Shown: positions 555-49,122 of the stretch, piece by piece
Layout of the letters: each line of letters opens with the position of its first letter
Position numbering within the stretch: position 1 is the stretch's first letter
From: a virus
Lineage: Duplodnaviria > Caudoviricetes
Length of the DNA stretch: 56,483 nt
Reading direction: 5' to 3' (one strand)
IMG/VR virus record: IMGVR_UViG_3300015259_000006
Span: 1-56,483 of that record
Made by a program: the position numbers and the translations under genes
Notes under the pieces: model-generated
Told to the model about the DNA's origin: nothing
What the model saw: the letters and a program-made list of their open reading frames with translations, nothing else
Database searches by the model: none

Positions 555-749
555 CTACTGCGTCGGTCTCATTCCGTTCCCCTCGGTGACGGATGCGTCA
601 CGTCTGACGCTGATCTTCCCCCCGCCGACGTGGACTGTCAAGCGTAAAGCCTTTGGTTGCATGGCGAGCGGTCTCAGCCTCTCCATGACCCAGACGCACA
701 GCGCCTCGTCTCCGGCCAGCGCTGCAGCGACCAGGTCAGCGACGTTCAC
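555..749 (-). CDS. Small protein (64 aa), weakly YezD/DUF2292-like
   Basis: GTGA overlap with upstream gene; LRLTVHVGGGKISVRR resembles the beta-hairpin pattern of that family (by eye). Confidence 0.4.
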   Translation of the reverse strand: MNVADLVAAALAGDEALCVWVMERLRPLAMQPKALRLTVHVGGGKISVRRDASVTEGNGMRPTQ

Positions 750-26283: not shown

Positions 26284-26435
26284 GTCCTTCCTCCTCCGTT
26301 GTGGTCCTTGCGCCACCCCGGCGTCACGCGCCCGGGGTCGTCGTCGTCTGGACCAGCGGCAGCCAGGAGCGCCGGGAGGGCGATCAAGGCTCCGGCCAGG
26401 AGGATCAGCGTGGCGACGATCTGGTCGGCAGTCAT
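26280..26435 (-). CDS. Tiny membrane protein
   Basis: MTADQIVATLILLAGALIALP; ATGA overlaps. Confidence 0.55.
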   Translation of the reverse strand: MTADQIVATLILLAGALIALPALLAAAGPDDDDPGRVTPGWRKDHNGGGRT

Positions 26436-28909
26436 GCCGCAGCCTCCGGGACGACCGTGCCGCCCGCCACCAGCAAGCGCGAGTCCGCCCCCTGCCAGAC
26501 CTCGGGGGAGTGGGACACGAAGAGGACCTGGTCGAACCCCCCGAGGTCCATCGCCCGCCGGAGCATCTCCACGTAGGCGTGCGCGTTCTCTGGGTCGAGG
26601 GCACCGGCCGTTTCGTCGCGCCAGAGCGTTCGATACTGGATGCCGGATTTGCGGCTGTTGTAGATCGAAAGCGCCAGCCCGAGGGCCTCCCCGACGACTA
26701 CCCGCTCCCCGCCGGACAGCGCCTCGACGGGCCGCTCCTGGCCGCCGTCGTAGACCCGGACGTCGAACGACTCGGTGTACTCGCCGGGCGCCGACTTCTT
26801 CTCCCGGAGGGTCTCCAGTGCGATGCTGAAGCGGGGGCCGTAGCAGGCCGTGAGCAGATCGTTCGTGACCTGGCTCACCTGTGGTCCCGCGGCGTCGATC
26901 TCGAGGGCTTGGATGCCGTCCCGGCCGAGGGCCCGCTCGAGGAGCGCCCAGTCCCCGAGCTCCTGTTCGGCCACCGCCACGTCCTTCCGGCGGGGCTCGA
27001 GGGCCGCGACCACCGCCTCGATCCGCTTGACGGTGGCTGCGGCCTGTCCCCGGCGCTCGTCCAGGGCCCGGAGCTTCGCCTCGACGCCCACGCGGCGGTC
27101 GCGCACGGTGGCGACCACGTCCCGGGCGAGGGCCAGATTCGGGGCGGCGGCTTCCTGGGCCTTCTCGGCTTCGACCGTGCCGAAGCGCGCCTTCGCCTCT
27201 CCGAGGCGCTTCTTGGCGGCGGCGACCTGTTCCTGCGCGTCGAAGAGCGCCTCGGCGAGATCTTCCCCGATCCGCTCTGTCTCGGTCACGACCTGCGCCC
27301 TGGCCGCCTCCGCCTCGGCCAGTCCCGACGCCAGGGCGCTGTCGATCAGGGCGTGCTCCTCTTTCTTGGCGACGAGGTCCCGCCGCGCGGCCGCGATCAA
27401 CACGGCGCGCGCGGCGGTCTCCTGCCAAGCCGCGCTCTCGATGGCTCGCTTCGCGATGCGGGCCCGGAGTTCCGCGGGCTCCGCCTGTACCTTGGCCCAC
27501 TGCTCGTCTGCCTCGGAGGAGCGGCGCCGCACGTCCTCGACGAGGACGAGAAGCTCCGGATCGACCTTGACCGTCGTGATGGCGAGCTTCGCCGCCCGCG
27601 CGTCTTTCAGAAGCGGGCACGCACCCGCGAGGTCCACGCCGAGCAAGCGGCCGCGCCCAGGTCCGGCCACCAGCTCTCGCTCACTGCGCCACCACGCATC
27701 GACGGCCGTACACGGCGCCTCGTTCATCAGCCCGGCTTGGCGCTGGAGCGCGCGCACCCGCTCCGCCACCGCCAGCTCGGCGTCCTCCAGCCTCCTCTCG
27801 GCGCCGGCGAGCTCCACCGCGAGCCGCGCCCGGAGGGACTCGATGCCGGCCAACTCGCCCATCCGGGCCTGGATCTCGGCGCTCTCCCCCTTCATGGCCT
27901 CGAGCTTGGCGACAGCAGCTTGGACGGCGGGCTCCTCGGCGATGACCGCCGTGGCGCTGGCGACCTGCGCGTCCAGTCGCTCGCGGGCGCTCTGGTGGAG
28001 CCGTCTCGCCCGCGCCTCCATCCCGTCCGGGTCCTGCCCGGCCAGCGCCTGCCGGCGTCTCGTCGCCTCGGTCTGAGCCTTCAGGCCCAGGTTCGCCGCC
28101 GCACGGATCGCCGCTTCCGCCGCCTCGACTTCCCGGGCGGCGCCCTCCCGGGCGCGCTCCAGGGCCTCCAGGCGCTCCTGGGCGCTCTTGGCCCGCTCGA
28201 GCGTGGCGACAGCCGCGGCTTCCTCCTCCTGCACGTCCTTGAGGACCAGGGCGAGCCCCTCCGCCTCCCCCTCGGCCATCTCCAGGGCGACCTTGGCGGG
28301 CCCCAGCGCCGCCGCCTCCGCCTCGGCCGATGCGATGGACTGGCGTTCGACCGCCAGGGCGGTCTCCGCGGCCTGCCGGCGATCGTGCGCCCGCTGGGCC
28401 AGCTCCTGCAGCCGACCGAGCCCGAGGAGTTGCGCGAACAGTTCCTTCCTGCCCTTCCGGTCCATGGTCAGGAAGCTGCCGGCCTTGTTCTGGGACGCGA
28501 ACGCGCTGGCGAGGAAGAGCTCCTGAGAGCCGAAGCGCCGGACGATCTCCGCCTCGAAGTCCTTGGCCTTTCCGCTCGTCAGGGGCTCCCCGTTCAGGAA
28601 GAGGTAGCCCTCGGTGAGCTTGCGATCCGCGTCGACCTGCACCCGGACCTTGATCTGGTCGCCGTCCTGGCCGAAAAATTCCGCCTCAACAAAGGCATCA
28701 CGACCATGACAGTGATCGTAGAGACTTCCGGGCCTCGTCGGAAGCCTCTTATAGAGAGCCGCGCAGACGGCTTCGAGTGCAGTGCTCTTTCCGGCTCCGT
28801 TCTGCCCGACGAGCGCGACGAGTCCGGGGCCGAGCGCCTCGAAGTCGATCCGGACCGGGGCCCCCGTGAACCGCGTGAGCCCCCTGAAAGCAAGCCTGCG
28901 AAGCTTCAT
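26432..28909 (-). CDS. sbcC: SbcC/Rad50-like SMC ATPase
   Basis: GQNGAGKST, Q-loop ASQ, coiled coil, LSGGE, WRDETAGALD, VSH. Confidence 0.95.
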   Translation of the reverse strand: MKLRRLAFRGLTRFTGAPVRIDFEALGPGLVALVGQNGAGKSTALEAVCAALYKRLPTRPGSLYDHCHGRDAFVEAEFFGQDGDQIKVRVQVDADRKLTEGYLFLNGEPLTSGKAKDFEAEIVRRFGSQELFLASAFASQNKAGSFLTMDRKGRKELFAQLLGLGRLQELAQRAHDRRQAAETALAVERQSIASAEAEAAALGPAKVALEMAEGEAEGLALVLKDVQEEEAAAVATLERAKSAQERLEALERAREGAAREVEAAEAAIRAAANLGLKAQTEATRRRQALAGQDPDGMEARARRLHQSARERLDAQVASATAVIAEEPAVQAAVAKLEAMKGESAEIQARMGELAGIESLRARLAVELAGAERRLEDAELAVAERVRALQRQAGLMNEAPCTAVDAWWRSERELVAGPGRGRLLGVDLAGACPLLKDARAAKLAITTVKVDPELLVLVEDVRRRSSEADEQWAKVQAEPAELRARIAKRAIESAAWQETAARAVLIAAARRDLVAKKEEHALIDSALASGLAEAEAARAQVVTETERIGEDLAEALFDAQEQVAAAKKRLGEAKARFGTVEAEKAQEAAAPNLALARDVVATVRDRRVGVEAKLRALDERRGQAAATVKRIEAVVAALEPRRKDVAVAEQELGDWALLERALGRDGIQALEIDAAGPQVSQVTNDLLTACYGPRFSIALETLREKKSAPGEYTESFDVRVYDGGQERPVEALSGGERVVVGEALGLALSIYNSRKSGIQYRTLWRDETAGALDPENAHAYVEMLRRAMDLGGFDQVLFVSHSPEVWQGADSRLLVAGGTVVPEAAA

Positions 28910-28913
28910 GGGC

Positions 28914-30077
28914 TCAGCCCTCCCGCTCGATCGTCGTGACCTTGTCCGCGAGGCGGGCCTGTTGCTCGGGCGTGATGCTCATGCCCTTCGCGTCGAAGTA
29001 GGCCTGGAGCTTGTCGGCGATCGACTTGGACGCCCCTATCGACTCGCTGCGGACGCGGGTCTCGTGCTGGACGACCGCCTCGAGCTTCACCTCGGCGGCG
29101 CCGTGGTCGAGCAGGAAGCGCCGGAGCGTGTCCTCGTCGACGGTGTGCAACTGGCCGGCTCCGATCCGGTAGCGGAATCGCACGAGCGCCCCCTTGATCT
29201 CAGCGAGTTGTCCGGGCGTGCAGATGGCATCGCCCTGTCCTGCGGTCTGGGTCCAGTCGGCCTCGAGCAGCAGGATCTCGCGGGCCGGGAGAGGGCGGAA
29301 CTCCAACCCGGCGAAGGAGCCGTCCTCGTTGAAGCTCACGAGGTTGTAGCCCTTCGGCTCGCTCTCCCCGAAGTTCTGGCGCACCGGCGAACCGCTGTAG
29401 GAGACGCGGCCGTCGAACCACGATTGGCTCTTGTGAACATGCCCCAGGGCCGCGTACTCGCAGCCGATCTCCTGGATCGCGTAGGGAGTCAACTCGATCC
29501 CGACTCCCTGCATGACCTGCCCGGTACTGGTCACGGATCCGGCCACCATGAGATGTGACACGAGGATCGGGACGAAGCCCTCGGCGCGAAGGCGCGAAGC
29601 CTCGGCATGTAGACCAACCAGAAGGGTCTCCATCGCCTCGATCGTCATCAGCCGTGTCTTCTCGGAATCGACCCCGGCGTCGAGATGTGACACGAAGTGG
29701 CTCTTGTCCGCCCACGGCAACGCGATGATGCCGAAGCGCCCGTGGACGCGGGCGCCCTCCGGAAGCGTCGGCCGGTCCATGACGACGAGAGGGAGGTGGG
29801 TTTCAAGACGACCGAAGATCGTCAGATCTCCGGCAACATCGTGGTTCCCCTTCACGATGAATACCCCCGCGATGGACGCAGCCTCCTGGAGAAACTCCGC
29901 CAAGACGATGCGCTCCTCCGGGGTGGATCGCCGGTCGAAGAGGTCGCCCGCGATGACGATCAGGTCTACGGCCTGCGCCTTCACGTCAGCCAGGAAGGCG
30001 TTCAGGACCACAATGAGGTCCGCTGGGCGCAGGTGCTCGCAGACGTGCAGGTCCGAGGTGTGGGCCAGTGTCAACAC
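28914..30077 (-). CDS. sbcD: SbcD/Mre11-like nuclease
   Basis: HTSDLH, AGDLFD, GNHD, SH, ALGHVH, YSGSP; GTG 30077 with GGAGG RBS, overlapping the HNH stop. Confidence 0.95.
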   Translation of the reverse strand: MLTLAHTSDLHVCEHLRPADLIVVLNAFLADVKAQAVDLIVIAGDLFDRRSTPEERIVLAEFLQEAASIAGVFIVKGNHDVAGDLTIFGRLETHLPLVVMDRPTLPEGARVHGRFGIIALPWADKSHFVSHLDAGVDSEKTRLMTIEAMETLLVGLHAEASRLRAEGFVPILVSHLMVAGSVTSTGQVMQGVGIELTPYAIQEIGCEYAALGHVHKSQSWFDGRVSYSGSPVRQNFGESEPKGYNLVSFNEDGSFAGLEFRPLPAREILLLEADWTQTAGQGDAICTPGQLAEIKGALVRFRYRIGAGQLHTVDEDTLRRFLLDHGAAEVKLEAVVQHETRVRSESIGASKSIADKLQAYFDAKGMSITPEQQARLADKVTTIEREG

Positions 30078-30544
30078 GCGATTCCTCCCCAGCGCTTTCC
30101 ATTGAGAATGCGACTGATGCAAGAGTCACGAACGCCGAACATCGCTCCGATGTCCTCCTGGCTCCTTCCGCCCGCTGCCCACAGACGCTTGATCTCCAAA
30201 ACGTCCGAGTTCTTGAGCTTGGCCATACCGTGACGGTGCCCGCTGGCGGAACGTTTTCGCCGCGCCATGTCCTCGCCGTTTTGCTTGTGGGTCTTGGGTT
30301 CTATGTGCGCTGGATTGCAGCACGGTGGATCGTCGCAAGAATGCGCGCCCTCCAGACCCTTGGGCATGGGCCGACCCTGCTCGATTTCCCACGCCACACG
30401 GTTGGCTCGAAGGAGTTTGCCGTCGAATGAAATGACCCCGTACCCGCCATTGGTTTGCGCGGCGAGCCACGGCCAGCAAGAACGCGGGCCACCAGAACGA
30501 TCTACGAGCGACCAGAAGTGCCGAATGAACGTGTCTGGATACAT
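30071..30544 (-). CDS. Free-standing HNH homing endonuclease with C-terminal HTH
   Basis: CWPW...GYG...ANRVAW...HSCDDPPCCNPAH...N..DM; AKL...SQEDIGAMFGV..SCISRI..GKRW. Confidence 0.92.
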   Translation of the reverse strand: MYPDTFIRHFWSLVDRSGGPRSCWPWLAAQTNGGYGVISFDGKLLRANRVAWEIEQGRPMPKGLEGAHSCDDPPCCNPAHIEPKTHKQNGEDMARRKRSASGHRHGMAKLKNSDVLEIKRLWAAGGRSQEDIGAMFGVRDSCISRILNGKRWGGIAC

Positions 30545-37060: not shown

Positions 37061-37618
37061 CTATCTGAAGGACTGCGCGATTATCTGGCGGAGGGCCAGC
37101 GAGTCGAATCCGGCGCGGATCTCGAGGTCTACCTGCTCCTGATCTTGCGCCGAACCGCCAGCGGATGGCTGCCAGCTCCAGCCGGCCGAGGCCGCGAGAT
37201 CGGCGGTAGGGACGTGGCCGGCCGCCCCAGCCGGGACCCGGACGGGGTTGGCGCCGTCGTGCCCGAGCAGATCCCCCTTGGCGGTGAGGATGGTGAAGCG
37301 GTGGGTGTGGCCCGAGAGCGAGACGCCGGGACCGCCACCCTGGGCGGAGACGGCCTCCACGACCCCCGGGGACCCCGTCACGTTCAGCGGGTGTCGGTGG
37401 TTGGCTGCCGTCCATCCGGCTGTCTCTTGGCCTTTGCTGGCTGCGACCCCGCCCTCGATCGCCAGGGGGAGGACGGTCGCCCCGAACCCGGCCGGCAGGC
37501 CGCCGACGATGCCCAGGACCTCGCGGTTGAAGGCCTCCTGGCGCTCCGCCACCTGCTGGAGGTTGGCGAGCTTGCTGAGCCTCGGAGGTTCGATCGGCCC
37601 CCGACGAGTCAGTGCCAT
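37061..37618 (-). CDS. Tail-associated protein
   Basis: ATG 37618 overlaps the giant gene's stop; LTAKGDLLGHDG..PVRVPAG fibre-like motif. Confidence 0.65.
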   Translation of the reverse strand: MALTRRGPIEPPRLSKLANLQQVAERQEAFNREVLGIVGGLPAGFGATVLPLAIEGGVAASKGQETAGWTAANHRHPLNVTGSPGVVEAVSAQGGGPGVSLSGHTHRFTILTAKGDLLGHDGANPVRVPAGAAGHVPTADLAASAGWSWQPSAGGSAQDQEQVDLEIRAGFDSLALRQIIAQSFR

Positions 37619-40600
37619 CGGGAGGGCCCCGCGAGCTCCCGCCGCGTCTGCTGTCGCGGCAGCTTCTTGGGTCCGCCGTGGCGGCGCCGCATCTCCCGGT
37701 TCGCCATCTCGGCCGCCACTCGATCGCGTTGCTGGATCAGCTTCCGAACCGCCTCGTCGTCCCGACCCTCGAGCGTGCGCATCGACCTGGTCAACGGCGT
37801 GAGGAGTCGGTTGCGGAACTTGCCGAAGGCCTCCTGCCACTCCCGCCGGAGCTCCTCGGGGACCTCGCTCGGAGGATAGCCGGCGATCGGTCCGCGCGGC
37901 CCGCGGTAGATCATGAGCCCGTACCGAGAGAGCAGCTTCTGCACCGGCTCAAGCAACCTCGTGGCCCCGGGGATGGGCGTCCCGCCGAGCGACGGGAACG
38001 AAGGGCTCTCGATGTCCGTGAACGGGATCCCGATCTTCTGGCGCGGCCGAAGGGGCTCCCCCGTGACGGGATTGACGGCCCCTGGAAGCGCATGAGAGAC
38101 GCCGGGGAGGTTCGCGCCTATCCCCTCGCGGATCGTCGGATCGAACAGCGTCTTGAGCGCGGAGAGCACCGCCTGCCCGGGGATCGCACGGTTGATCGTG
38201 TTCTCCAGCTCGCCGCGGAGGGCCCGCGGGTCGTTCTGCGGATTCTCGGCGGCCCGGAGGAAGGTCTTGATGAGCCCGCCCAGCAAGCCGCCCTCGCCGG
38301 CCAGGAGCCGGCCGCCCGGGATCGAGGCGTGGCGGAGCGAGGCGACCGCCTTCGAGATCGCCTCGTCCTTCTCCTGCTCGTTGCCCAGTGCGACGGCGTG
38401 CGCGCCGCGAATCACCGTGAGCAGCCACAGCGCCGTGGGGAGCGGGTCGCGGTTCGACAGGCGGATTCGGTTCCCGTCGTCGTCGACGTACTCCATGGAG
38501 TTGAAGTCCACCCGGTCGTACAGGTTGTTGATGAGGTAGAGCCCGCCGAGCCCCGTGGCCACCTTGCCGAGGTACTCGCCGACGTCCTCCGCCTTGAGCG
38601 TCCCCGCCTTCAGCCGCTGGTACATCTCGGGGTTCCACCCGAGCATCTCGCCCGCCCACCTGGTGAATTGGAAGGGCCAGCGGGCGAAGGTGTCCACGAG
38701 CAGCCGGGCGGTGGTCGAGTCCGCGACCTTCTCCTCGAGCTTCGACAGGTCGCGGTTGAAGCCGGCCTTCTTCCCGTTCGAGATCGCTCGATCGAGCGAC
38801 TCGGTCGGCGGGTCCTGCAGGAAGCGCTCGATGAACGCCTCGCGGTCGGCGCCGCTCACCTGCTCCCGGTGGGAGGCCTCGATCGCCTCACGGTAGAGCG
38901 TCCAGTGGGCCCCCAGCCGCTTGGCCGCGGTGTCCATGCCCTGCTTGAAGTAGAGTGGGAGCCCCACCGTGTAGTCGTAGGCCGTGCTCCCCAGCCCCTT
39001 CCGGTAGGTGAAGATCCCGGCGCCCGGCGCCCGGCCCATGCGCTCCCCGGCGATCGTCGTCTCCAGCCGCGCCTCCACGTCAGGGGCCATCGGCTCCACC
39101 GCGCTCTGCCGCCAGGAGGGTAGCTGCGTCTTCGTCCGGATCGTCCGGAAGAGCGCTTGCATGGACGGGAAGTAGGGCTGCCCCTTGGCCATGAGCACGA
39201 GGTCGCGCCCGATGCCCGCGCCGCCCTGCGCGGCCAGCTCCGAGGCGTTGCCCACAGCGTCGAGCGTCCACGAGGTCGTCGAGAACAGGTTGAGCCGGAA
39301 GTGATCGACGAGGTCCCGGCGGAACTGAGCCTTCTCCGGATCGCTGAGCGTGCTCCAGTTGCGAAGGCTCCGCAGGATGTTCGAGGCGATCGGGATCCGC
39401 TCCTTGACGTCCTTGATGTTCCCGGCGATGAGCCCGGCCTCGCGCAGCCGCTGGATCACCTCCTGCGGGATAGGCCGGTCGAAGCGCTTGACGGCGCGGC
39501 CCGCCGAGGTCCGGTAGACCTGCCAGTTCTTGACCGCCTGCTCCATGATCTGCCGAGAGAGCCGCATCTGGTAGGCGGAGTTGGCGTCCGCGCCGGTCGT
39601 GAAGCGCTGCTCCGCCGCCTGGAACTCCTTGACGGCCGAGACGATCTCGGCGCCCGCCTGCTCGATGTCCCGCTCGCTGAACCGGAAGCCCCGGGTCTCC
39701 TCCGGCGCCGGCTGCCCGGCCCGGCGGAACGCCGGCCGCTCGCCCTTGGCGATCGTGCCCCGCTCCTCGATCCGCTGGGCGCCCTCCTGCGCGATCTCGA
39801 ACTTGCGGTTCGTCGCCTCGAAGGTGTCGGCCACCCGCTTCGCACGGTTCGACGCGGTGACGGCGTCCTCCGCCAGGACCACGGAGGGCCGGCGGGTGTC
39901 CGGCGCCGCGGGAGCCCCTCGAGTGGGCACGGGGGGCGGACGGGGCCCGCCCGGGGGCGGGGAGATGAGCCCGAGGCCGGCGCGGGGCGGCCGCCCATCC
40001 CCGCCGGCCGCCGGGCGGGCCGGCAGGCCGGGCGCCGGCGTGCCGGCCTCCGCGCGCGCCTTCGGGTAGACCGCACGGAGATGGCGCCCCAGCCCGGGCA
40101 GGCCGACGTCCGCCATCATCGCCTTGGCCCAGCCGCCGAAGTCGCGCATCCCGCGCTGGATCAGGCTCGCGCCGTAGATGGTGGCGTCCCGCAGGGTCTC
40201 CGCCCCCATGCCGGCCGCGGCGCCCATCGAGAGCGGGTCGTCCGTCTCGCCCCGCTTCTTCAGTCGATCGAGGGCCGCCTGCCCAGCATCAGTCGCCGCC
40301 GCCGGCTTCTTCTCGGGCGCCATCGGCGGGTAGGCGTCCATCAGGTTCCGCAGGATGCGGACGCCCTCCGCCTGCTCGGTGGGCACGAAGAATCGGGTGC
40401 GGTACTCGATCTGCTCCTCGATGAGTCCCATCGACCGAAGATGCTGGAACCGACTGGACTTGACCCCAGACACTTCGACGCGACGTTCGCCGTGGACCTT
40501 GGTGCGCCTGAGAACGAGATTCTCGGAGAGGGCGACAGCCTCGCCCTGGTGGAAGACCGCGGTGAACACCTGCTCGGGCGTCTCGAACGTGCGCCCAACC

Positions 40601-43600
40601 CCGAGTGATTGCAGGACGCGCCCCACTTCGTTCTTGGGGATCTCGACGCCAACGATGCGTTGCCCGTTGTCCGCCTGGGCGCGGATGATCCGGAGCCCTT
40701 GCTCGTCGCCCTTGAGCCGCTGCCAGATCGGCAGGATGGAGCCGGCGATGATGTGGTGCTCCCGTTTCTCCGTCTTGGGAAGCTTGGCAACCGCCGCTTC
40801 CCACTCGTCGCGTATGGCCTTGGCGGACGCCCCGATCGGCTCGGGATGAGAGCCCAGCCTTTCGCGGACCTCCTCCTTGCGATCGGTGACGATCTCGTAC
40901 TTCTCGTTGAACTCGCTTTCAGGAATGCTCTCGAAGTCGCCGCGGTTGTTCCAGAGGCCCTGGACCCTTCGCACCGCGCCCGTCTGGGCGTCGGTCGTAT
41001 CCCGGGTTTTGCCAACCATGACGAGCCGCTTGCTCGTCTTCTGGCGGGCGATCCCGGTGCCGCCTCCAATCCCCTCTCTCCACGTCATCCGAGGCGTGGC
41101 CTCCTCGGCATCGAGGATCAGGTGTTTGGTTTCGGCGCCTGTCGTGGCGTCCGTGTGGATCAGGGTGGGATCTCCACGGACGTTGAGCGTGACCGCCTTC
41201 AGGTCCACCACGCCGTCATCGAAGGTCCCCTCTTCTTTGGCCTGCCGGATCGTGTCGTCGAACTTGCGGGTGAACTCTCCGAAGATCGCGTTCTGGCGCT
41301 GGAGGTCGAGCGAGAGGATGCGATTCAGGAATCGCGTTACGTCGCGGCGGGCGGCGTCTGGGACGCGGACGCTGCGGCCCTGCTCCTCCTTGGAGAGCCC
41401 CATGTCCACGATGGCCTGGCGCGTGTCTTCGACTCCGACAATCTCGCTTCCCCGCTCCATGTCCCAATAGAGCTTCTCCAGCGCGGCTTCGCCCTCGACG
41501 GTCTCGAAGTTGTACTTGGCGAGCTCTCCGCCGCCGCTCGCATCCCGCTGGCCTCGAGTAAGAGCCCCGAGGCTGGCCAGTCGGCGAGCGATAGTTGAGG
41601 AGAACCGCTTTTCCCCTCCGATGTCCGTCGAGACAAGGACGAAGACGGGGGTCTGGGCCTGATCGCTCCGATGGGCTCGTCCCATCGTCTGGAGCTCGGC
41701 GTCCGCCGACCAGTCCAGCTCGGCGGCAATCTGCCGGCGGCGTTGCTGGTTCTTCTCCTGATTCGAGGAGTGCAGCGAGATCCCCGTCGAGGCGGCTCGC
41801 GAGATGATGGCGATGCGCTTCTTGCCCCCCTGGAACTGACGCATCTCGTGGACGTTGACCTTGTTGCGCGACACCTCGTCGGATGCCCTGCTCTCGTAGG
41901 TCACCTTTCCGGTCTTCTTGTTTCGCACGAGGCGGCGCGCACGGCCGGTCAGCTCGGCGACGTTCTTCTCCCCGAAGTGGCTGATGAACTGGTCGAGCGG
42001 GTTGTCGGGCAGATTCAGGTCGGACAAGCCGTCCATAATCTGCTTCTTGAGAGCCAGGGCCTCCCTGCTCTGGACTGGCTTTCCGTCCCGCACCATCGCC
42101 ACCTTGACCGTCTTCGTCGGGTCTGTTGGGTCGCGAACTTCCTCGTACATCTGCGTGGGGAAAGCCTTATCGAGCATGGAGGCGAGAGTCTGGCGGGGCG
42201 TGAAGTCCAGCTCTTCTAGGCCAAGGCCCTCTCCGGTAGCCTTCGAGACAAGCTCGGAGGTTTTGCCTTCCCCGGTCCCCTTGAGCGTAACGATGACGCT
42301 CTCTCCCGCCGCAAGGGCCTCCTCCGTCTCTTTGATGATCGTCGGCATCTTGATCGCCGTCGTCACCTGTCGGAAGAAGCGCTGGTGAGCACCCCAGAAT
42401 GCCTGCATGGCGCTGGTGCGGGCCCGGGCATTGGCATTCGTGATGCCGATTGCATTTTCGATGTTCTGGAGGACGACCTGCCACGCCCGCGCCGAAGCGT
42501 CGTACATCTGCCGTTGGTCGGTCGTCGTCTCGTGGATCCGCTCCGCGTACTCGACGCCCTTGAAGGAGAGCGAACGGGCGGCATACATCCCGAGGGCCTT
42601 GAGGTCCCTGGAGACCATCTCCTTCGCCCCGACCCCGCCGCTCTCGATCTCGTTCAGGAACTCGTTGAAGCCGCCCGGGAAAGGATAGCGAGCGGCCAAA
42701 GCGCCGTGCGCCTCCACCTGGGCGGACATCTGCGGAGTCGGCCCGCCGAGCCCGCCGGCCCTGGGTGGCTCGGGGGCCCAGAGCCCCAGGCGGGTCATGT
42801 ACGCCATGTTGCGAACGTCGGTCGCCCCGGTGGCCGAGACGTAGAGTACGCGAGCGCCCGGGAGGTCGGTCTGAAGCTGGATGACCGCCTGTCCTGTCTG
42901 GCTGGGCTGGGCGCGGCCCACGCTCAAAGCGTTCTTGGCCTTGTGGGCTTCGTCGAAGACGATGACTCCGTCCTTGCCCAGCCACCGCTTGATCTGCTCG
43001 AGTCGGGTGTTCCCTCCGGCAGGTAGATGTCCGGGGTGTCCTGGCGGCGCGCCGGCGACCTTCTTCCCGGTGGAGATCAGGGAGTTGTAGGTGGTGAACA
43101 GGATGCCGGCGTCGTGCTTGATGTCTCCGGAGGCAGGGAAGGCGTTGATCGAGACGATGGGGATCTTGTCCTTCCCGGCCACGCCCTCCATGTCGCGCTT
43201 CGCGTCCTCGATGAGGTCGCGCGAAACGGAGACCCACAGGGACCGCTTGCGCCCCTGGTGCCAGTTGTCGAGGATGACGCCGGCGATCTCGCGGCCCTTC
43301 CCGACCCCCGTGCCGTCTCCAATGAAGTGACCGCCACGGGCCCCGTCGGGAAGCGTCTGCTCGTGCCTCTGTTTCGCGTAGAGCACCTGTTCGTACTGGA
43401 TGTCCGAGAGTCGCCCCTCCTTGAGCACAGCCTCGGGCAGCGAGGTCCGCACGCGAATCTCCGGCGGATCGACGGCCGCCATGGAGGCCGCCTCTACGAT
43501 GTCGGCCGGATGCTTCGCCAGTCCCTTGGTGTCGAGCTTCGCCGGGGCATACTGGACGAACGTCCCGCCGCTCTCTTCCTCTCGTGCGATCGGCCCCTCG

Positions 43601-46600
43601 CGCCGGGTTGGCGCGGCCGCAGTCGGTTCCTCGGTAAGACGACCGCCCTCATCGGGCGGCGGCTCTACACGGCCAACATCCGGAGCACGCCCAGGGCGAT
43701 CTCGTAGCTGTCCTTCGGCGGGTTGTTCAGGTCGAGCCCCGGGTTCGCCTGCTTGAATCGGCGCACGAGGGCCACCGGGTCTCCCTCCGGAGGGAGGTCG
43801 TCCGGGTCCAGGCCGGCCGCCAACGTCTCCTCCCGGAGCCGCGGCCCCGCCTCGAGGTGCTCCGTCCACGCCTGCTCCACCCGGCTCCACTGGCCGACTG
43901 GGCTCCGGAGCCAGCGGAGTTGCTCGGGGCTCGCCTGCTTTACGTTCGGCGCCGATGGGGAGGAGGGCATCGAGGGCATCCTCTAGTGAGGTAATACTCC
44001 CGCGGGCCACGTTTTGCAAGCGTTCTGCCATGGTCGCGCCGGGGGTCGGCCCCGTCTTGTCGATGACGAGGATCTGGTTTCCGAACGCCGTGCCGTACTT
44101 GCTGTACTCGTCTCCCGGTATCCCGATGTTGGCGCGGACGTTATAGCGAGGGAGGATGTCCGCCCACCAGTCGGCGAATGCTGCTCCGGTCGCGTGTCGC
44201 CCGGAGGGCTTCGGGGCAGCGATCACCTCGAACACCTGCCCGGACCTCGACAGCCCCGCCCGCGCCTCCGGGGTGTCGGGCGCCTCCCACTTCCCGTAGC
44301 CGTTCTGCTTGAAGCCCAGATCCTCGGCCAATGCGATCTGGTGGCGGTTGCCGGGCTCGGTGCGAAGGACACCGCGGACCGACTCCGGGAACTTCATGCC
44401 CTGGCCCACGATCGCCACGAGCCGGCCGCCGGGCTCCAGCCGCTGAAGCGCCTGGGTGACGTGCCGGGCCCCGTACTCCGTCTTGTTCGCCTGCACCCGC
44501 CCACCCGTCGCGGAGAACGGCGGGTTCATCACGATCACGGTGGGCCGCACGTCCTCGGGGAGCACGTCGTTGAGCACCTCGGCGTCCGAGGTCGTCGGCT
44601 TGAAGCCGAGGCGTTCGAGCAGCTTCACCCGCCGCGGAGCGATCTCGTTCACGCGGACGTCCTTCGCCCCTTCCGCCTGGATGAGCACGGCGATGCCGCC
44701 GTTGCCGGCGGAGGGCTCGAGCGCCACGTCCTCCGGACGGATGCCGGCCGCCTTGACGGCCACGAGCGCTTGGGTCGGTGGCGTCGAGAACTGCTGGAGC
44801 TCCTTCTGCTCGAGGGTCCTGTCGGTCTGCGTGGGCAGCCGCTTCAGGACATCGCGCAGCTCGGCGAGCGCCTTCTTCGGCTCCATCTTCGCGAGCCGCT
44901 TGCCGTTCTCCTGAATCCAGCGGTTGACGCCCGCCTCCATCGCATCGTAGGCGTCACGCGGCGTGTACTTGCCCTGGCCGCGCGTTCCTCCGAAGGCTTC
45001 CTGCGCGAGAGCGTCGAGCGAGCGGTTGTCCTTGATCGCTTCGCCCTTGCGAAGTCGTTCGGCGACGGCCTCTAGGAGCGTGGCCTCCGCATCCCTCGGG
45101 GCCTCCGGCCCACCGGATTCCTTCTTCTTCCGGTACTCGGCGGTGGCCAGCATGTCGCCGAGATCCTTGGAGTTGATGACGCCCCGCCGCACCAACTCCT
45201 CGCCGATCCGCCGCGTCTCCGCAACGTCCCACACCTTGTACGCAGCGTCGAGTTGATCCCCAAGCTCTGCGTCGGTCAGACGACCCTTGACGGTCTCGCC
45301 GGTGAGCGGCTCCTCGATTCGCCAGCCCTCGGGCAGCGTGCCGGGCTTGACGATGGACTCCTCCTCGTGGATCTCTGACTTCGGCGCGCCCTCTTCGGGA
45401 AGGCCGGTGACCGTCGCGCTACCGTCCCTCCTCATGCGCTCGGCTACCGCACGCGAGGTGTCGCTCGGCCGCGCCGACCAAAGGCTCCGCCGCGTGTCCC
45501 AGCGGAAGCCGGCCGTCTTGAAGCTGTCACGGATGGCCTTCGACGGCTTCTCAGCGAAGGCGATCGTGATCTCGGTGGAGGGCTTCGGTTCTGCAGGCCG
45601 CGGCTTCACCGGGAAGCCGGCCCCTTCGATCCTGGCCTTCGTCTCATCGCTGACCGCCGGCTTCTCCGGCTCGCGTTGCAGTGCGAAAAGGGCGTCGTCC
45701 TTGGCTCGCTCCCAGCGGGACCAGTCGTCGGGACTGCTCGTCTCCTCGAAGCGCTTGAGCCCCGCCTCAGCCGTCTCCACGATCTTCCGGTTGTCCTTCA
45801 GGTTGATCGCGCGGGTGAGCGCAGCCTTCAGCCGCTGGTATTCCTGCTGTGAAAGGCGCTCCTCTGGGGCGGCCGCAGGCTTCGCGGGACGCTCATGGCC
45901 CTTCGTGGCGAAGGAGGGGAGGACGTACTTGGCCCCGGGCTCGTTCTGGACCTGGGGGGTGACCGGCTTGCGGGCTTCCTCGCCCTGCTCGCGAGCCGCC
46001 TCGATGAGCGAGGCCGCGGCAGCCTTGTCCGGCTTGCGGGTGACTGCCTCCGCCGAGGGGAGTGGCGCTACTGCGGCAGGGGCTTCGGCCTCGGTGGGAA
46101 CCTCACCCGGACGAGCTTGCTCCCCGGGGGCAGAGACTTCACGAAGTCCGCGAGGCTGCTCACCACGGGCGGCTCGTTCGCCCGCGGCGACTCCGGCCTT
46201 CTTGGCAGCGTTGAGAGCGGCATCGGCTTCGGCAAGGTTCGCTCCTATTCCGTGATGGAGACCGATCCCCCGCATGGAGCGCGTCGATCCGTCCGGCAGT
46301 CGGAAGTCAACGACCGCCTCTCCAACGAGTTGCTTCAGTCTACCAGACCATTGGCCGATCTGTTCGGCGGTGTCCCCGCGGAGGAAGAACTCATCTCCCC
46401 CCACCCGGTACGCGCGGAGCCTCGGGTGTCCGCCCAGCTCCTTCTCGAACTCGGCACCCACAGCACGCAGGAGCGTGTCACCGGCCTCCTGGCCGAGGTT
46501 GTCGTTCACCCACTTCAGGCCCTCGACGTCGAGCTTGGCCTGCGGACCCTCTGCGCCCCCCGCCTCCTCGTAGGCCCGGCGGTTGCCCAGGCCGGTAAGG

Positions 46601-49122
46601 TCGTCCGTGAGCAGGGCCCGGCGCATCTCCTCGGGCTCCATGAGGTCAACGCGCTTCCGGAGGGCGAGGGCGGCACGGCGCTCGCGCGGGCCGGCCAGGG
46701 GTTGGGCGCGTCGCTCGCCGGTAGGTGCCGCGGGGGCTCCCTCTGTTCCTGCGGGAGCGCCGGGGACAGGCGCCGGAGGCGGCGCCCCCTCCCCGGGCCC
46801 GGCCGGGGCGCCGGGACGACCAGGGGCAGCGATGGGCGCTTCACCCGCTGGCGGTGCGCTTGGACCCCGCGGCTCAAGAGGTTGGACTGCCGGATGGATC
46901 GCCTCGGCCTGGCGCTTGTAGGCGAGGGGCTTCTTGGTGTCGCCCCCTCGAGCCCACGCCTTGAACTCCTCGACCGGCATCGAGGTGACCGCCCCGACGC
47001 GCTCCGAGGCCTTCCCGTCGGTGTAGGCCCGCCGGTAGGTGTCCAGGGCGGCGACCTCGTCTGGGAAGCCCAGCATGGCCTTGTGCTCATCGAAGCGCCC
47101 CGTCTTGGGGTCGATCTGGTCGATGACGAACACCCGCTCGGACTGCGGGGCGTCTCCCATGAAGACGTCGACCTGGTCCCCGTCCTTCCCCTCGGTGCGC
47201 CGGATGTAGCCGTAGTCGGCCGGGTAGTCGGGGACCCGCCAGGAGCGGTCCTTGGCCACCCGCTCGCCGCCCTTGGGGGTCTCGACGGAGATGTCCAGGC
47301 CCTGCCATGCCAGGTGGCCCTTCTTGTAGTTCCCGGCCTCCATCTGCGCGGGTGTCGGCGCCTCGGCGGGCGCCTCGGGGGCCGGCGCTGGCGGCGGCGG
47401 CGCGGCCGGGGGCGGTGGAAGTGCCTCGGCGGGTGGCTGCTCTCGTCCTGGGGGCGCCTCGGCCGCCTGCCGCCGCGTCTGACGGAGGGCGGCCTGCTCG
47501 ATGGGCCTGGCGACCTCCGGACGGGTCAGAACCCCGGCGGCGGCCTCAGCCTCCGGGGAGAGCTTCACCATCTCGGCGCCGAGGCCCGTCATCTCGGCCG
47601 GGGGCACCGGCGGCCCTGCGCGCGGTTCGGTGCGAGCCTCGCGGAGCGCCGCACTGATCGCCGTGGCGGTCGGGCGCCGCTGCAGGAACTCCCGTGTCAG
47701 CCGGGCCTGCTCCGCAGCCACACGGGCCTCCTGGATGGCCTCCGGCCGGTGCCGTTGCTCGATCTGCCATCTCCGCCGCGCGGCCCGGTCCATCTCCCGG
47801 GCGACCTCGGGGCGGGTGACGGCGCCGGCCTCGGCCTCGGCCGCGGGCGACAGGCGCACCATGTCGGACCCGGTCCCCGTCAGCTTGGGCGGGCCCGGCA
47901 GCGGGACGACCCGCGGGTCCCTCGGACCCATCAGGGCGGACCGGACGGCGGGCGAGATCGACCGGCGCTGGAGGAACTCCCGCGCGAGGCGCAGCTGCTC
48001 GGCGTTCGCCTGAGCTTCCCGGTTGGGCGTCAGGAACTCCCGCTCGCGCGCCTCGAAGGCCGCCTGCTCGACGGCCGCCTCCTCGATCGCCCGCGCCTTG
48101 GCCTCGGCGGCGGCCACCGCGATCCGCGGGTCCTTCGCGAAGCCGTGCTTTAGGCCCAGGCCTCCGAACGCGAGCGACGAGACGGACCCCAGGCCGGTGC
48201 GCAGCGTCTCGGGGTCCGACCAGCCGCGCTCGCGCGCCATCTCTCCGGTCTCCACCGCCCCCTCGACGCCCCCTATCACCATCTCGGGGGCGAAGGCGAG
48301 GCCGGCGGCGCGTGCCGCGATCGGAGACGCCTTGCCGAGCGTGCTGAAGGCCTTCCCGTACATCGGCAGGCCGACCGCAAGATCGGCAACGAATTCGCCG
48401 ACCGCCTCGGCCTGTCGCACGGCGCGCGGTGCCGCCTCGTGGTAGATCGGTTCCGTGCCGGGGATCCCGCCTGGAGCGCTGGGGTCCGCTGGGAGGAGGT
48501 GCTCCGCGACTCGCGGCATGCCGAGCGCGCGCGCCGCCGCCGCCGCCGCTACACCCATCCCCAGAGGCAGACCGGGTCGCGCGGGCCGGCCCTCCGCGAG
48601 CGCTCGACCCATCTCCGCGGCGGGGCGCTTGATGTTCTCCTCGCGCAGCAGTTCTTCGATGCCTGGCGACTCGAAGCCGAGGAGCGTCTCCGGCGCGAGG
48701 CGAAGCCTCGAGCGCTCTGCCGGGACTCCAGCCGCGTACTCCTGAACCGCCGTGCCGACAGCGGCCGGCACGCGGAACACGGCATCCGCAACCTCGCCGG
48801 CCCTCGCCGCCGCTCCCTTGATGGTCGAGAAGGACTCTTCGCCTTCCGGGGTGAGCCTGACCGCCGACGGCTTCCCGGTCGCCAGGGCCATCCCTTCCTG
48901 GCCCAGCATCGCGAAACCGCGGAGCGGGTTGATGGTCCTCTCGACGTCCTTGACTTTGCCCCAGACGCCCTTCGCGGCGCGCGCGATCAGGGGCTCCGAC
49001 TTCTGCGGCGCCGGCGTGAAGAGGTCCCCGTAGCGGCTCGACTGGGTCGGCCCGGTTGACGGACGTCTGGCGACTGTCGAAGCCGTCGAGTCCGGTAGCA
49101 GGAAGTCATACCGACCGGGCAT
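37609..49122 (-). CDS. Giant polyvalent DarB-like internal virion protein (InPase, GGDEF, N6-adenine MTase, strawberry-notch SF2 helicase, helical C-terminus)
   Basis: AQMEAGNYKKGH...DYGY...DGDQVDV...FDEHK (about 47360-46920); TDDLTGLGNRR...ND..G...GD...RVGGDEF (about 46640-46195); QFSTPP, LEPSAGNG, MNPPF (about 44900-44050); GDGTGVGKGRE, FDEAH, SATGA, QTMGRAHRSDQ (about 43560-41250). Follows the ejection-type genes. Confidence 0.92.
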   Translation of the reverse strand: MPGRYDFLLPDSTASTVARRPSTGPTQSSRYGDLFTPAPQKSEPLIARAAKGVWGKVKDVERTINPLRGFAMLGQEGMALATGKPSAVRLTPEGEESFSTIKGAAARAGEVADAVFRVPAAVGTAVQEYAAGVPAERSRLRLAPETLLGFESPGIEELLREENIKRPAAEMGRALAEGRPARPGLPLGMGVAAAAAARALGMPRVAEHLLPADPSAPGGIPGTEPIYHEAAPRAVRQAEAVGEFVADLAVGLPMYGKAFSTLGKASPIAARAAGLAFAPEMVIGGVEGAVETGEMARERGWSDPETLRTGLGSVSSLAFGGLGLKHGFAKDPRIAVAAAEAKARAIEEAAVEQAAFEAREREFLTPNREAQANAEQLRLAREFLQRRSISPAVRSALMGPRDPRVVPLPGPPKLTGTGSDMVRLSPAAEAEAGAVTRPEVAREMDRAARRRWQIEQRHRPEAIQEARVAAEQARLTREFLQRRPTATAISAALREARTEPRAGPPVPPAEMTGLGAEMVKLSPEAEAAAGVLTRPEVARPIEQAALRQTRRQAAEAPPGREQPPAEALPPPPAAPPPPAPAPEAPAEAPTPAQMEAGNYKKGHLAWQGLDISVETPKGGERVAKDRSWRVPDYPADYGYIRRTEGKDGDQVDVFMGDAPQSERVFVIDQIDPKTGRFDEHKAMLGFPDEVAALDTYRRAYTDGKASERVGAVTSMPVEEFKAWARGGDTKKPLAYKRQAEAIHPAVQPLEPRGPSAPPAGEAPIAAPGRPGAPAGPGEGAPPPAPVPGAPAGTEGAPAAPTGERRAQPLAGPRERRAALALRKRVDLMEPEEMRRALLTDDLTGLGNRRAYEEAGGAEGPQAKLDVEGLKWVNDNLGQEAGDTLLRAVGAEFEKELGGHPRLRAYRVGGDEFFLRGDTAEQIGQWSGRLKQLVGEAVVDFRLPDGSTRSMRGIGLHHGIGANLAEADAALNAAKKAGVAAGERAARGEQPRGLREVSAPGEQARPGEVPTEAEAPAAVAPLPSAEAVTRKPDKAAAASLIEAAREQGEEARKPVTPQVQNEPGAKYVLPSFATKGHERPAKPAAAPEERLSQQEYQRLKAALTRAINLKDNRKIVETAEAGLKRFEETSSPDDWSRWERAKDDALFALQREPEKPAVSDETKARIEGAGFPVKPRPAEPKPSTEITIAFAEKPSKAIRDSFKTAGFRWDTRRSLWSARPSDTSRAVAERMRRDGSATVTGLPEEGAPKSEIHEEESIVKPGTLPEGWRIEEPLTGETVKGRLTDAELGDQLDAAYKVWDVAETRRIGEELVRRGVINSKDLGDMLATAEYRKKKESGGPEAPRDAEATLLEAVAERLRKGEAIKDNRSLDALAQEAFGGTRGQGKYTPRDAYDAMEAGVNRWIQENGKRLAKMEPKKALAELRDVLKRLPTQTDRTLEQKELQQFSTPPTQALVAVKAAGIRPEDVALEPSAGNGGIAVLIQAEGAKDVRVNEIAPRRVKLLERLGFKPTTSDAEVLNDVLPEDVRPTVIVMNPPFSATGGRVQANKTEYGARHVTQALQRLEPGGRLVAIVGQGMKFPESVRGVLRTEPGNRHQIALAEDLGFKQNGYGKWEAPDTPEARAGLSRSGQVFEVIAAPKPSGRHATGAAFADWWADILPRYNVRANIGIPGDEYSKYGTAFGNQILVIDKTGPTPGATMAERLQNVARGSITSLEDALDALLPIGAERKAGEPRATPLAPEPSRPVEPGGAGVDGAPRGGAAAPGGDVGGRPGPGRPPSGGRPGGPRAPIQAGEPGARPEQPAEGQLRDRPGRAPDVGRVEPPPDEGGRLTEEPTAAAPTRREGPIAREEESGGTFVQYAPAKLDTKGLAKHPADIVEAASMAAVDPPEIRVRTSLPEAVLKEGRLSDIQYEQVLYAKQRHEQTLPDGARGGHFIGDGTGVGKGREIAGVILDNWHQGRKRSLWVSVSRDLIEDAKRDMEGVAGKDKIPIVSINAFPASGDIKHDAGILFTTYNSLISTGKKVAGAPPGHPGHLPAGGNTRLEQIKRWLGKDGVIVFDEAHKAKNALSVGRAQPSQTGQAVIQLQTDLPGARVLYVSATGATDVRNMAYMTRLGLWAPEPPRAGGLGGPTPQMSAQVEAHGALAARYPFPGGFNEFLNEIESGGVGAKEMVSRDLKALGMYAARSLSFKGVEYAERIHETTTDQRQMYDASARAWQVVLQNIENAIGITNANARARTSAMQAFWGAHQRFFRQVTTAIKMPTIIKETEEALAAGESVIVTLKGTGEGKTSELVSKATGEGLGLEELDFTPRQTLASMLDKAFPTQMYEEVRDPTDPTKTVKVAMVRDGKPVQSREALALKKQIMDGLSDLNLPDNPLDQFISHFGEKNVAELTGRARRLVRNKKTGKVTYESRASDEVSRNKVNVHEMRQFQGGKKRIAIISRAASTGISLHSSNQEKNQQRRRQIAAELDWSADAELQTMGRAHRSDQAQTPVFVLVSTDIGGEKRFSSTIARRLASLGALTRGQRDASGGGELAKYNFETVEGEAALEKLYWDMERGSEIVGVEDTRQAIVDMGLSKEEQGRSVRVPDAARRDVTRFLNRILSLDLQRQNAIFGEFTRKFDDTIRQAKEEGTFDDGVVDLKAVTLNVRGDPTLIHTDATTGAETKHLILDAEEATPRMTWREGIGGGTGIARQKTSKRLVMVGKTRDTTDAQTGAVRRVQGLWNNRGDFESIPESEFNEKYEIVTDRKEEVRERLGSHPEPIGASAKAIRDEWEAAVAKLPKTEKREHHIIAGSILPIWQRLKGDEQGLRIIRAQADNGQRIVGVEIPKNEVGRVLQSLGVGRTFETPEQVFTAVFHQGEAVALSENLVLRRTKVHGERRVEVSGVKSSRFQHLRSMGLIEEQIEYRTRFFVPTEQAEGVRILRNLMDAYPPMAPEKKPAAATDAGQAALDRLKKRGETDDPLSMGAAAGMGAETLRDATIYGASLIQRGMRDFGGWAKAMMADVGLPGLGRHLRAVYPKARAEAGTPAPGLPARPAAGGDGRPPRAGLGLISPPPGGPRPPPVPTRGAPAAPDTRRPSVVLAEDAVTASNRAKRVADTFEATNRKFEIAQEGAQRIEERGTIAKGERPAFRRAGQPAPEETRGFRFSERDIEQAGAEIVSAVKEFQAAEQRFTTGADANSAYQMRLSRQIMEQAVKNWQVYRTSAGRAVKRFDRPIPQEVIQRLREAGLIAGNIKDVKERIPIASNILRSLRNWSTLSDPEKAQFRRDLVDHFRLNLFSTTSWTLDAVGNASELAAQGGAGIGRDLVLMAKGQPYFPSMQALFRTIRTKTQLPSWRQSAVEPMAPDVEARLETTIAGERMGRAPGAGIFTYRKGLGSTAYDYTVGLPLYFKQGMDTAAKRLGAHWTLYREAIEASHREQVSGADREAFIERFLQDPPTESLDRAISNGKKAGFNRDLSKLEEKVADSTTARLLVDTFARWPFQFTRWAGEMLGWNPEMYQRLKAGTLKAEDVGEYLGKVATGLGGLYLINNLYDRVDFNSMEYVDDDGNRIRLSNRDPLPTALWLLTVIRGAHAVALGNEQEKDEAISKAVASLRHASIPGGRLLAGEGGLLGGLIKTFLRAAENPQNDPRALRGELENTINRAIPGQAVLSALKTLFDPTIREGIGANLPGVSHALPGAVNPVTGEPLRPRQKIGIPFTDIESPSFPSLGGTPIPGATRLLEPVQKLLSRYGLMIYRGPRGPIAGYPPSEVPEELRREWQEAFGKFRNRLLTPLTRSMRTLEGRDDEAVRKLIQQRDRVAAEMANREMRRRHGGPKKLPRQQTRRELAGPSRWH
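43665..43979 (-). CDS. Nested +1-frame gene (101-104 aa) right after the MTase domain
   Basis: Protein-like sequence; about 7 of 104 codons end in A/T (hand count), while about half of the overlapping main-frame codons do; AGAGG upstream of ATG 43970. Confidence 0.75.
   Translation of the reverse strand: MPSMPSSPSAPNVKQASPEQLRWLRSPVGQWSRVEQAWTEHLEAGPRLREETLAAGLDPDDLPPEGDPVALVRRFKQANPGLDLNNPPKDSYEIALGVLRMLAV
46068..46235 (-). CDS. Nested +1-frame gene (55 aa) overlapping the end of the GGDEF domain
   Basis: AGGAG-6 nt-TTG; MPKPMPLSTLPRRPESPRANEPPVVSSLADFVKSLPPGSKLVRVRFPPRPKPLPQ*; about 25 of 56 main-frame codons end in A/T here. Confidence 0.6.
   Translation of the reverse strand: MPKPMPLSTLPRRPESPRANEPPVVSSLADFVKSLPPGSKLVRVRFPPRPKPLPQ

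Follow-up and report, generated by a model that had tools for sequence, protein, structure and literature searches.

A putative gene nested in the linker between the methyltransferase and strawberry-notch helicase domains of a giant phage polyvalent protein

The giant gene and its nested open reading frame

The stretch of DNA analysed here, called the window throughout, is the whole of virus record IMGVR_UViG_3300015259_000006, a metagenome-derived sequence of 56.5 kb with 68.6% GC and an estimated completeness of 98% (CheckV). On its minus strand, as seen in the list of open reading frames (ORFs) and the translation, there is a gene at 37609..49122(-) for a polyvalent protein of 3837 aa, the frame of which is referred to as F0. 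Wholly within this gene, in its +1 frame (F1), lies an ORF of 104 aa at 43665..43979(-). From a conserved ATG within it, the ORF at 43665..43970(-) would encode an acidic, predicted all-helical protein of 101 aa, ending at a TAG stop at 43667..43665. An initial annotation of this DNA proposed that a small hidden gene is overprinted here, in the linker between a methyltransferase (MTase) and a helicase. The ORF and the peptide that it quoted are present as described inside 37609..49122(-), and the proposal is borne out by codon composition, by the existence of a protein family, by the predicted fold, and by the same layout in a related contig, L002. Judged from these comparisons, 43970..43665(-) is very probably a real, separately initiated, dual-coding gene nested in the +1 frame of the giant gene.

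The two enzymes on either side of the nested ORF are recognizable. The class-I methyltransferase lies at about residues 1471-1586 of the host protein, where a Pfam match to MTS (44365..44712(-)) contains the NPPF motif and falls slightly below the Pfam threshold (E 1.7e-4, 21.7 bits against a cutoff of 23). In the host-gene translation the motif region reads VMNPPFS, and PHROG DNA methyltransferase matches span residues 1399-1580. Strong Pfam matches place the strawberry-notch (Sno) P-loop domain AAA_34 at 42769..43515(-) (aa 1870-2118), and Helicase_C_4, the C-terminal domain of strawberry-notch helicases, at 41203..42003(-) (aa 2374-2640). The host gene, with an NPPF methylase N-terminal to a Sno-type helicase, is that of a polyvalent protein with a DarB-like methylase-helicase dyad. 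The archetype of this dyad is P1 DarB, in which form an EcoKI/TaqI-type NPPF adenine methylase and a SWI2/SNF2-clade helicase are found together in many-domain phage and plasmid proteins, and a strawberry-notch variant is cited from Methylomonas (PMC5512222). Between the two enzymes of the window there is an F0 linker of residues 1712-1847 (43582..43989(-)), rich in G, P, R and A, with GC contents at the first, second and third codon positions (GC1/2/3) of 0.91/0.71/0.52.

Codon composition

Within 43665-43979(-), only 7 of 104 codons end in A or T when read in F1, against 54 of 105 in F0 and 12.8% of the remaining 3732 codons of the giant gene; the counts given for the two frames in the initial annotation were exact. 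A frame-wise plot of GC3, which it had put forward as a check, points the same way, in that F0 GC3 in 50-codon windows has its minimum of 0.38 at codon 1769, within the nested stretch, against a gene mean of 0.862 (sd 0.104). Across the nested stretch, the F0 GC1/2/3 is about 0.92/0.7/0.45, which means that it is F1 that has the normal coding pattern of the genome. Four other linkers of the giant protein that are rich in G, P, A and R, taken as controls, keep a GC3 of 0.75-0.93, so that the flip in composition is not general to such linkers. One further host stretch, aa 957-1029, is likewise depressed, with a GC3 of 0.55-0.61.

The start signal

The AGAGG and the TTGCAA-17-TATTAC that were noted upstream of the ORF are both there as letters, at 43984..43980 and 44019..43991, respectively. 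The first of these is a Shine-Dalgarno (SD)-like sequence, 43980..43984(-), placed 9 nt before the conserved ATG and within the F0 codons L-E-D at the end of the methyltransferase. The first ATG of the ORF, at 43977..43979(-), would give the 104 aa form and is not conserved; it reads AAG in L002, and an A>T difference at 43978 in a second contig, X2, likewise makes it AAG on the coding strand. The conserved start is therefore the second ATG (43970) and the likely product is of 101 aa. Indeed, a GAGG, GGAGG or GAAGG, a spacing of 9 nt, and an ATG are found in all seven loci compared: the window, the metagenome contig L002, four plasmids (L004, L005, L006, and L007) and a phage contig (L013). 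The nested ATG follows the invariant methylase VIDK motif by 28 codons in the window and L002 and by 27 in the plasmids. Similar SD sequences are used by several other genes of the window. There is an F1 stop 2 codons before the first ATG in the window, and in L004, L007, and L013 such a stop precedes the ATG by 1, 4, and 5 codons, respectively, which would suggest that F1 has its own initiation and is not entered by a +1 frameshift.

The TTGCAA-17-TATTAC had been taken as a promoter from which the small gene would be independently transcribed. This part of the proposal was rejected, as a consensus scan found 0 promoter-like sites in 43400-44400, the -35 hexamer is lost in L002, and TATTAC is accounted for by the conserved F0 codons S-I-T. 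Initiation within the mRNA of the giant gene would seem the most likely route to the small protein.

The phage-type family

When the nested F1 peptide of the window (P0002) was used in a word-indexed search, three homologues of about 100 aa were recovered, with 57-62% identity. A profile search of 1.84 billion representatives gave 34 matches at E<=1e-3, 10 of these at <=1e-10 and 3 at <=1e-30. Nearly all members of this phage-type family are 86-143 aa in length, mostly 90-120 aa, and their composition varies widely; they agree in their pattern of hydrophobic residues, and the motifs W..., RL..EA..GL, NP.LDL, and DPY.LAVGVLRM recur among them. The near-invariant residues W31, L48, N79, P80, Y92, A95, and L99 are all found in the window copy. 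Left out of alignment A3 of the 34 matches were a 45-aa fragment (P0014) and three long, multi-stretch, repetitive sequences (P0015, P0022, P0029), and alignment A7 additionally omits two with N-terminal extensions (P0006, P0007) and two with long C-terminal tails (P0033, P0036). An AlphaFold2 (AF2) model of the window protein, made with the family alignment, has five predicted helices, with a predicted local distance difference test (pLDDT) of 86.3 and a predicted template modelling score (pTM) of 0.70. The window protein has an isoelectric point (pI) of 5.07 in its 104-aa form and has no cysteine.

No family in Pfam, PHROGs, NCBIfam, or PADLOC was matched by P0002, and Foldseek against the PDB found no fold match for its model (best E 1.7). 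For this and the second nested family described below, the single match among PDB sequence profiles was to a designed helical repeat (1.3e-5) and was put down to composition, and the ESM Atlas gave no usable match. In a search for longer, fused relatives of P0002, 0 of 1019 candidates scored, which is weak evidence.

The N-termini in A7 read M, then P, R, L, Q or H, then S in 16 of 29 cases, with second-residue codons of the form C-N-x. Codons of this form are expected in the +1 frame if F0 has an invariant Asp-Ala-(hydrophobic) motif in which the wobble base of Ala is free to vary, a hint that most members of the phage-type family may lie where the window copy does in F0. The N-terminal parts of P0006 and P0007 are ordinary-looking and have no Pfam match; these two may be stand-alone or differently embedded forms, relevant to how the nested gene arose.

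Comparison of the window with L002 and X2

The A1 scan for close relatives gave one locus, L002, in metagenome contigs and nothing in viral or genome contigs. Nothing was found in viral contigs by the A2 scan or in genome or viral contigs by the A4 scan. A T7-like contig (L003), which came from a degenerate motif scan of viral contigs, was rejected as a chance match. There was no match in tblastn searches of the F0 piece against phages, nor of P0024 and P0008 against plasmids.

L002 is a metagenome contig of 2.3 kb in which F0 is open from the end of the methylase into the helicase and a 101-aa ORF is present in the +1 frame at 390..695. The flanking enzyme domains of the window and L002 are 88-91% identical as protein, with omega of 0.09-0.14. 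Over the nested stretch F1 has an identity of 0.63 and an omega of 0.55, and F0 an identity of 0.55 and an omega of 1.13; in the first 36 codons, omega is 0.215 for F1 as opposed to 3.2 for F0.

The X2 contig, of 3055 nt, is the only one among the contigs of four sequencing runs to span the stretch. It has a net difference of 21 bases over a 1001-base stretch, with the phase preserved. Among 40 of its 82 differences, the 16 inside the ORF fall 3/6/7 at F1 positions 1/2/3 by hand count, which is uninformative. Of the sequencing runs listed as containing the stretch, none is recorded as RNA.

Counterparts in plasmids and in a second phage contig

When the F0 piece was compared with plasmids by tblastn, 219 records were matched. 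Among the matches listed (30 of 219), four gammaproteobacterial plasmids match on both sides of the linker, two from Methylomonas, one from Methylotuvimicrobium, and one from Thioflavicoccus; the DNA of 7 of the 219 records was examined (H1-H4, H5, H11, H22). All four of the plasmids matching on both sides (L004-L007) have an ORF of 114-117 aa in the +1 frame of the linker. The four peptides are mutually homologous, and in a search with such a peptide these four were the only plasmid records matched, each time inside or under the giant gene. In L013, an IMG/VR phage contig of 49% GC, there is a 49%-identical copy at the same place. The gene had been expected to move with the domain, and other polyvalent MTase-Sno proteins, those of the four plasmids and this phage contig, do have a gene in the corresponding place.

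These plasmid-type proteins belong to a family of 94 clusters in a collection of 5.8 billion proteins, mostly unnamed or "hypothetical". For alignment A6, 40 of the 94 matches were hand-picked for spread, with the chimeric or fragmentary P0124, P0130, P0131, and P0132 excluded. The AF2 model predicts a fold with pLDDT 90.3 and pTM 0.85, for which Foldseek found no match in the PDB (best E 2.4). Other than a weak PADLOC match of P0044 (E 0.0018), no family in Pfam, PHROGs, NCBIfam, or PADLOC was matched. The view that gene callers discard such a gene agrees with the RefSeq plasmid tables, which, incomplete as they are, list only the giant coding sequence (CDS) at these places; a few records of metagenome-assembled genomes list the plasmid-type small ORF as a "hypothetical protein".

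In five of six plasmid pairs, F1 omega is 0.108-0.407 (the sixth is saturated), and the same bases read in F0 give 1.50-2.21. Third positions of F1 codons carry the largest share of the differences, as in 29/17/47 at positions 1/2/3, and L013 has F1 identities of 0.40-0.48 compared with 0.20-0.26 for F0. Purifying selection on the nested-frame protein is unambiguous in the plasmid-type loci.

Non-conservation of the +1 peptide, or stops in this frame of homologous linkers, was named in the initial annotation as what would count against the gene. In the close clade the frame is nested and open in 7 of 7 loci, and it is only in three distant short-linker fusions that such stops are seen and the gene is absent. 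These fusions, from Nostoc, Caulobacter, and Sphingobium, have short linkers with no composition flip and with F1 stops. The nested gene therefore marks one subclade, in which the long linker amounts to little more than the space that the nested gene takes up.

Some irregular copies were seen. In the plasmid of Methylomonas sp. AM2-LC (L006) the nested stop is at 1842 and F0 is open beyond it, with ~100 extra F0 codons, unlike the helicase N-terminus, inserted between the nested gene and the helicase. In the plasmid of Methylotuvimicrobium alcaliphilum 20Z (L007; 438..839 and 858 onward), the N-terminal part is a separately annotated CDS of 133 aa, divided by a stop from the strawberry-notch CDS, and the same part is fused in the other plasmids. 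P0124 (186 aa, Pfam PF13872) begins in the nested frame and continues into the F0 helicase N-terminus, and P0130 passes from F1 to F0 and back to F1; both are probably contig frameshifts.

Maintenance of both frames

The F0 linker is open in all seven loci and its amino acid sequence is not conserved. Conserved F0 sequence resumes at TAAAPT...FVQYAPAKL, the N-terminus of the helicase, and there is no F0 start codon between the nested stop and this conserved N-terminus, which means that the helicase is reached by reading F0 through the spacer. The chance of F0 being open was estimated by re-coding the nested protein with the codon usage of the host gene, 20000 times per locus, and scoring the fraction in which F0 had no stop. 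This fraction is 1e-4 for L004, 1e-4 for L006, 8e-4 for L007, and 0 for L013, the four low-GC loci, while for the three GC-rich loci it is 0.14 (L005), 0.15 (window), and 0.08 (L002). The fact that F0 is open far beyond chance in the low-GC loci, where F1 is under selection, shows that both frames are maintained. At the level of sequence the DNA is truly dual-coding, with a protein predicted to fold in F1 and, in F0, a spacer that needs only to be open.

The features of an overprinted gene can thus be set out for these loci. A complete ORF in another frame of the same strand is present in the window, L002, L004-L007, and L013. Purifying selection on the embedded frame is clear in the plasmid-type loci and, for the window and L002, weak towards the C-terminus. 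Maintenance of the host frame and an initiation signal belonging to the embedded frame are both seen at the level of sequence.

Other features of the giant gene and the window

N-terminal to the methyltransferase, the host protein has Pfam matches to an InPase domain (aa 592-724) and a GGDEF domain (aa 839-977). Its PHROG matches include "DarB-like antirestriction", "minor head protein", and "virion structural protein", all of which rest on the InPase region. Elsewhere in the same virus record, genes for SbcC-like and SbcD-like nuclease subunits (PHROG 77, PHROG 100) are present at 26432..30122(-).

After the GGDEF domain the giant gene has a second stretch of low GC3, at about 46400..46040, where F0 GC3 is 0.55-0.62 and F1 has a coding-like pattern. 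An F1 stop-to-stop run of 58 codons is found here at 46244..46068(-). The core of this run is identical to residues 97-119 of P0007 at 14 of 23 positions (pairwise E 7e-6, a score reached by 0 of 1000 shuffles), these residues being part of the N-terminal extension of this 229-aa member of the nested family. This may be another overprinted piece, either shorter or in decay, or else linker DNA that is shared, and it hints that the linkers of polyvalent proteins may host such genes repeatedly.

Alternative explanations

Several observations weigh against 43970..43665(-) being a real nested gene. The length of the ORF is within chance: its stop-to-stop run ranks 8th of 63 in the F1 frame, the codon-shuffled giant gene yields longer +1 runs, and shuffled genes of the plasmids of 45-53% GC have mean longest +1 runs of 114-126 codons. 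Length was for this reason rejected as evidence, given the rank of the run and the equal or longer runs in the codon shuffles. DNA was read for only two phage-type loci, the window and L002, the others being known as protein, and DNA-level selection for this family rests on a single pair. In this pair the C-terminal 64 codons are weak, with omega of 0.70 for F1 against 0.94 for F0 and differences at F1 positions 1/2/3 of 21/22/23. The SD sequence and the ATG share their bases with F0 codons that are themselves conserved (L-E, then D-A or N-D), from which their conservation may be partly borrowed, and GAGG-N7-10-ATG occurs 50 times on the two strands of the window. Two family members, P0006 (203 aa) and P0007 (229 aa), have the domain at the C-terminus of longer ORFs, and the three more distant MTase-Sno fusions of Nostoc, Caulobacter, and Sphingobium are without a nested ORF. 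No homology was detected between the phage-type and plasmid-type proteins by hhalign (probability 0.3-0.6%, E 0.1-0.19, 85 co-linear columns); the same frame, start signal, and position suggest that the two families may have a common origin.

The rank of the ORF, the longer runs in shuffles, and the weak C-terminal selection between the window and L002, together with the 150 ORFs of at least 150 aa in the 68.6% GC window, are what might be expected were there no gene here, the ORF and its apparent conservation being a by-product of a GC-rich, low-complexity linker or of constraints on the nucleotide sequence. This is very improbable, since a divergent family of 34 members keeps its hydrophobic pattern and is given a confident fold by AF2, conservation is higher for F1 than for F0 in every pair, the counterpart is present in replicons of 45-53% GC with omega of 0.11-0.41, and the GC3 flip is absent in the four other linkers of the giant protein. 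Further, the low identity of F0 argues against the members being off-frame translations of one conserved F0. Errors of assembly or sequencing have also to be considered, by which an F1 segment that belongs in frame with the rest of the giant protein would have been displaced, or three genes fused. The record is metagenome-derived and there are F1/F0 chimeras among the database proteins, yet this explanation is scarcely credible when the layout is seen in seven independent loci, complete RefSeq plasmids included. F1 has stops at both ends, F0 has neither a stop nor a start before the helicase N-terminus, phase is kept in the X2 contig, where the net difference is 21 bases, and the openness of F0 is far beyond chance in the low-GC loci.

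F1 might alternatively be reached by a programmed +1 ribosomal frameshift, giving a truncated product of the N-terminal domains, the methylase, and F1 beside the full-length protein. The +1 geometry in 7 of 7 loci would fit such a mechanism, as would the fact that F1 is open further upstream in L005 and L006; P0124 and P0130 also cross F1/F0 junctions, though they resemble contig frameshifts. The F1 stops 1-5 codons before the ATG in the window, L004, L007, and L013 leave hardly any space in which the ribosome could shift, 7 of 7 loci have a GAGG-type SD followed after 9 nt by an ATG, and slippery or rare-codon motifs were not seen on inspection, the only way in which they were sought. A frameshift is accordingly improbable as an explanation.

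The remaining alternative accepts that the gene is real and holds that its product is independent of the giant protein, an early anti-defence or host-takeover effector that hitch-hikes in the linker for co-expression and co-inheritance. Between the window and L002, the nested protein has an identity of 0.63 compared with 0.88-0.91 for its flanks, a fast evolution typical of proteins in conflict, and the product is small, acidic (pI 4.2-5.1), and helical. There is a precedent in comS for an embedded gene that serves a pathway other than that of its host gene (PMC12915044). On the other side, no fold or sequence match to known anti-restriction or anti-defence proteins was found with Foldseek against the PDB (best E 1.7 and 2.4) or in PADLOC, Pfam, PHROG, and NCBIfam, and the strict positional tie to one MTase-Sno subclade fits a functional link to the enzyme pair at least equally well. 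An independent effector is possible, if rather unlikely.

Possible role of the nested protein

If 43970..43665(-) is a nested gene as proposed, one stretch of DNA would give two products. Read in F0, it would be a disordered G/P/R/A spacer by which the methyltransferase stays joined to the strawberry-notch helicase within a single polypeptide; read in F1, it would be a protein of about 101 aa, acidic, all-helical and folded. The small protein would be made from the mRNA of the giant gene through internal initiation at the ATG at 43970, the signal for which, the GAGG SD, 9 nt, and ATG, would lie within the final codons of the methyltransferase domain. The presence of the same spot, frame, and start signal in four plasmids and a second phage contig would indicate a module that is inherited with the enzyme pair.

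The small protein might be a stoichiometric partner of the methylase-helicase, as a regulator, an inhibitor, or a handling chaperone. This role is favoured by analogy with Rz/Rz1 and by the restriction of the gene to this methylase-helicase subclade, in phages as in plasmids; it is put forward tentatively, at somewhat less than an even chance. The nested products, with their pI of 4.2-5.1, are helical, lack cysteine, and evolve faster than the flanking enzymes. Co-folding of P0002 (A7) with residues 1380-2140 of the giant protein gave a score of 0.02, in a run without controls, a value that tells in neither direction. A more far-reaching and rather doubtful proposal is that this is an old, obligatory dual-coding module of one DarB-like clade, common to phages and conjugative plasmids, with the phage-type and plasmid-type proteins being orthologues that have diverged past sequence recognition. 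The small protein might then be a dedicated subunit of the dyad, for example one holding the enzymes inactive in the producing cell or piloting packaging or transfer.

Comparison with known systems

Rz1 is in the +1 frame of Rz. In these spanins of phage lambda, the o-spanin gene is embedded in the i-spanin gene and the products act together (PMC5295617, PMC6139136). The nested gene described here is similar in being a complete small gene within a larger phage gene, on the same strand and with its own putative start. Unlike Rz1, which is a secreted lipoprotein, the nested protein has no cysteine and hence no lipobox, and is predicted to be soluble and all-helical; and unlike Rz, the host frame is here a passive spacer between domains of a giant multi-enzyme protein, rather than a functional domain.

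A second comparison is with comS, which encodes a protein of about 46 aa. It is a small gene in a distinct frame of srfAB of Bacillus subtilis, a very large gene for a multi-domain enzyme with which it is co-transcribed (PMC12915044). There is the same likeness here of a gene for a small protein, in another frame, inside a very large gene for a multi-domain enzyme. The comS gene is much shorter, overlaps a catalytic module, belongs to a regulatory pathway of a different kind, and is known from a single bacterial lineage, whereas the nested proteins of 101-117 aa are predicted to be folded, are encoded in a linker, and recur across phages and plasmids.

Small acidic proteins are known among mobile elements, where ArdA and Ocr, which are DNA mimics, are expressed with anti-restriction functions. 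The nested proteins resemble these in size and acidity (pI 4.2-5.1). They differ in having no match to a PDB structure or profile, and in being only moderately negative, with D+E minus K+R of 3-14.

The host gene has the methylase-helicase architecture already described for DarB-like dyads, to which the nested gene adds a new element, in that the main text of that description, supplements aside, mentions no gene within the dyad (PMC5512222). Nor was any gene within such a dyad, or within strawberry-notch, polyvalent, or DarB proteins, described in the literature searched, paper supplements being outside the scope. Embedded out-of-frame genes are an established kind, and one inside a methylase-helicase dyad would appear to be newly described here.

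Since standard annotation gives the giant CDS only, a recurrent hidden gene is missed by annotation pipelines, and a second gene can lie behind what seems to be the "disordered linker" of a polyvalent protein. In GC-rich genomes, the flip in GC3 provides a simple test of composition for further cases. Should the product control or escort the methylase-helicase, it would be a missing component in the DarB-like protection of incoming DNA. The embedded genes known from phages and bacteria, such as Rz1 and comS, are rare curiosities, while here there are at least two protein families, of 34 members and 94 clusters, absent from Pfam, PHROGs, and NCBIfam, from a putative nested gene that recurs in giant anti-restriction-type proteins of phages and plasmids.

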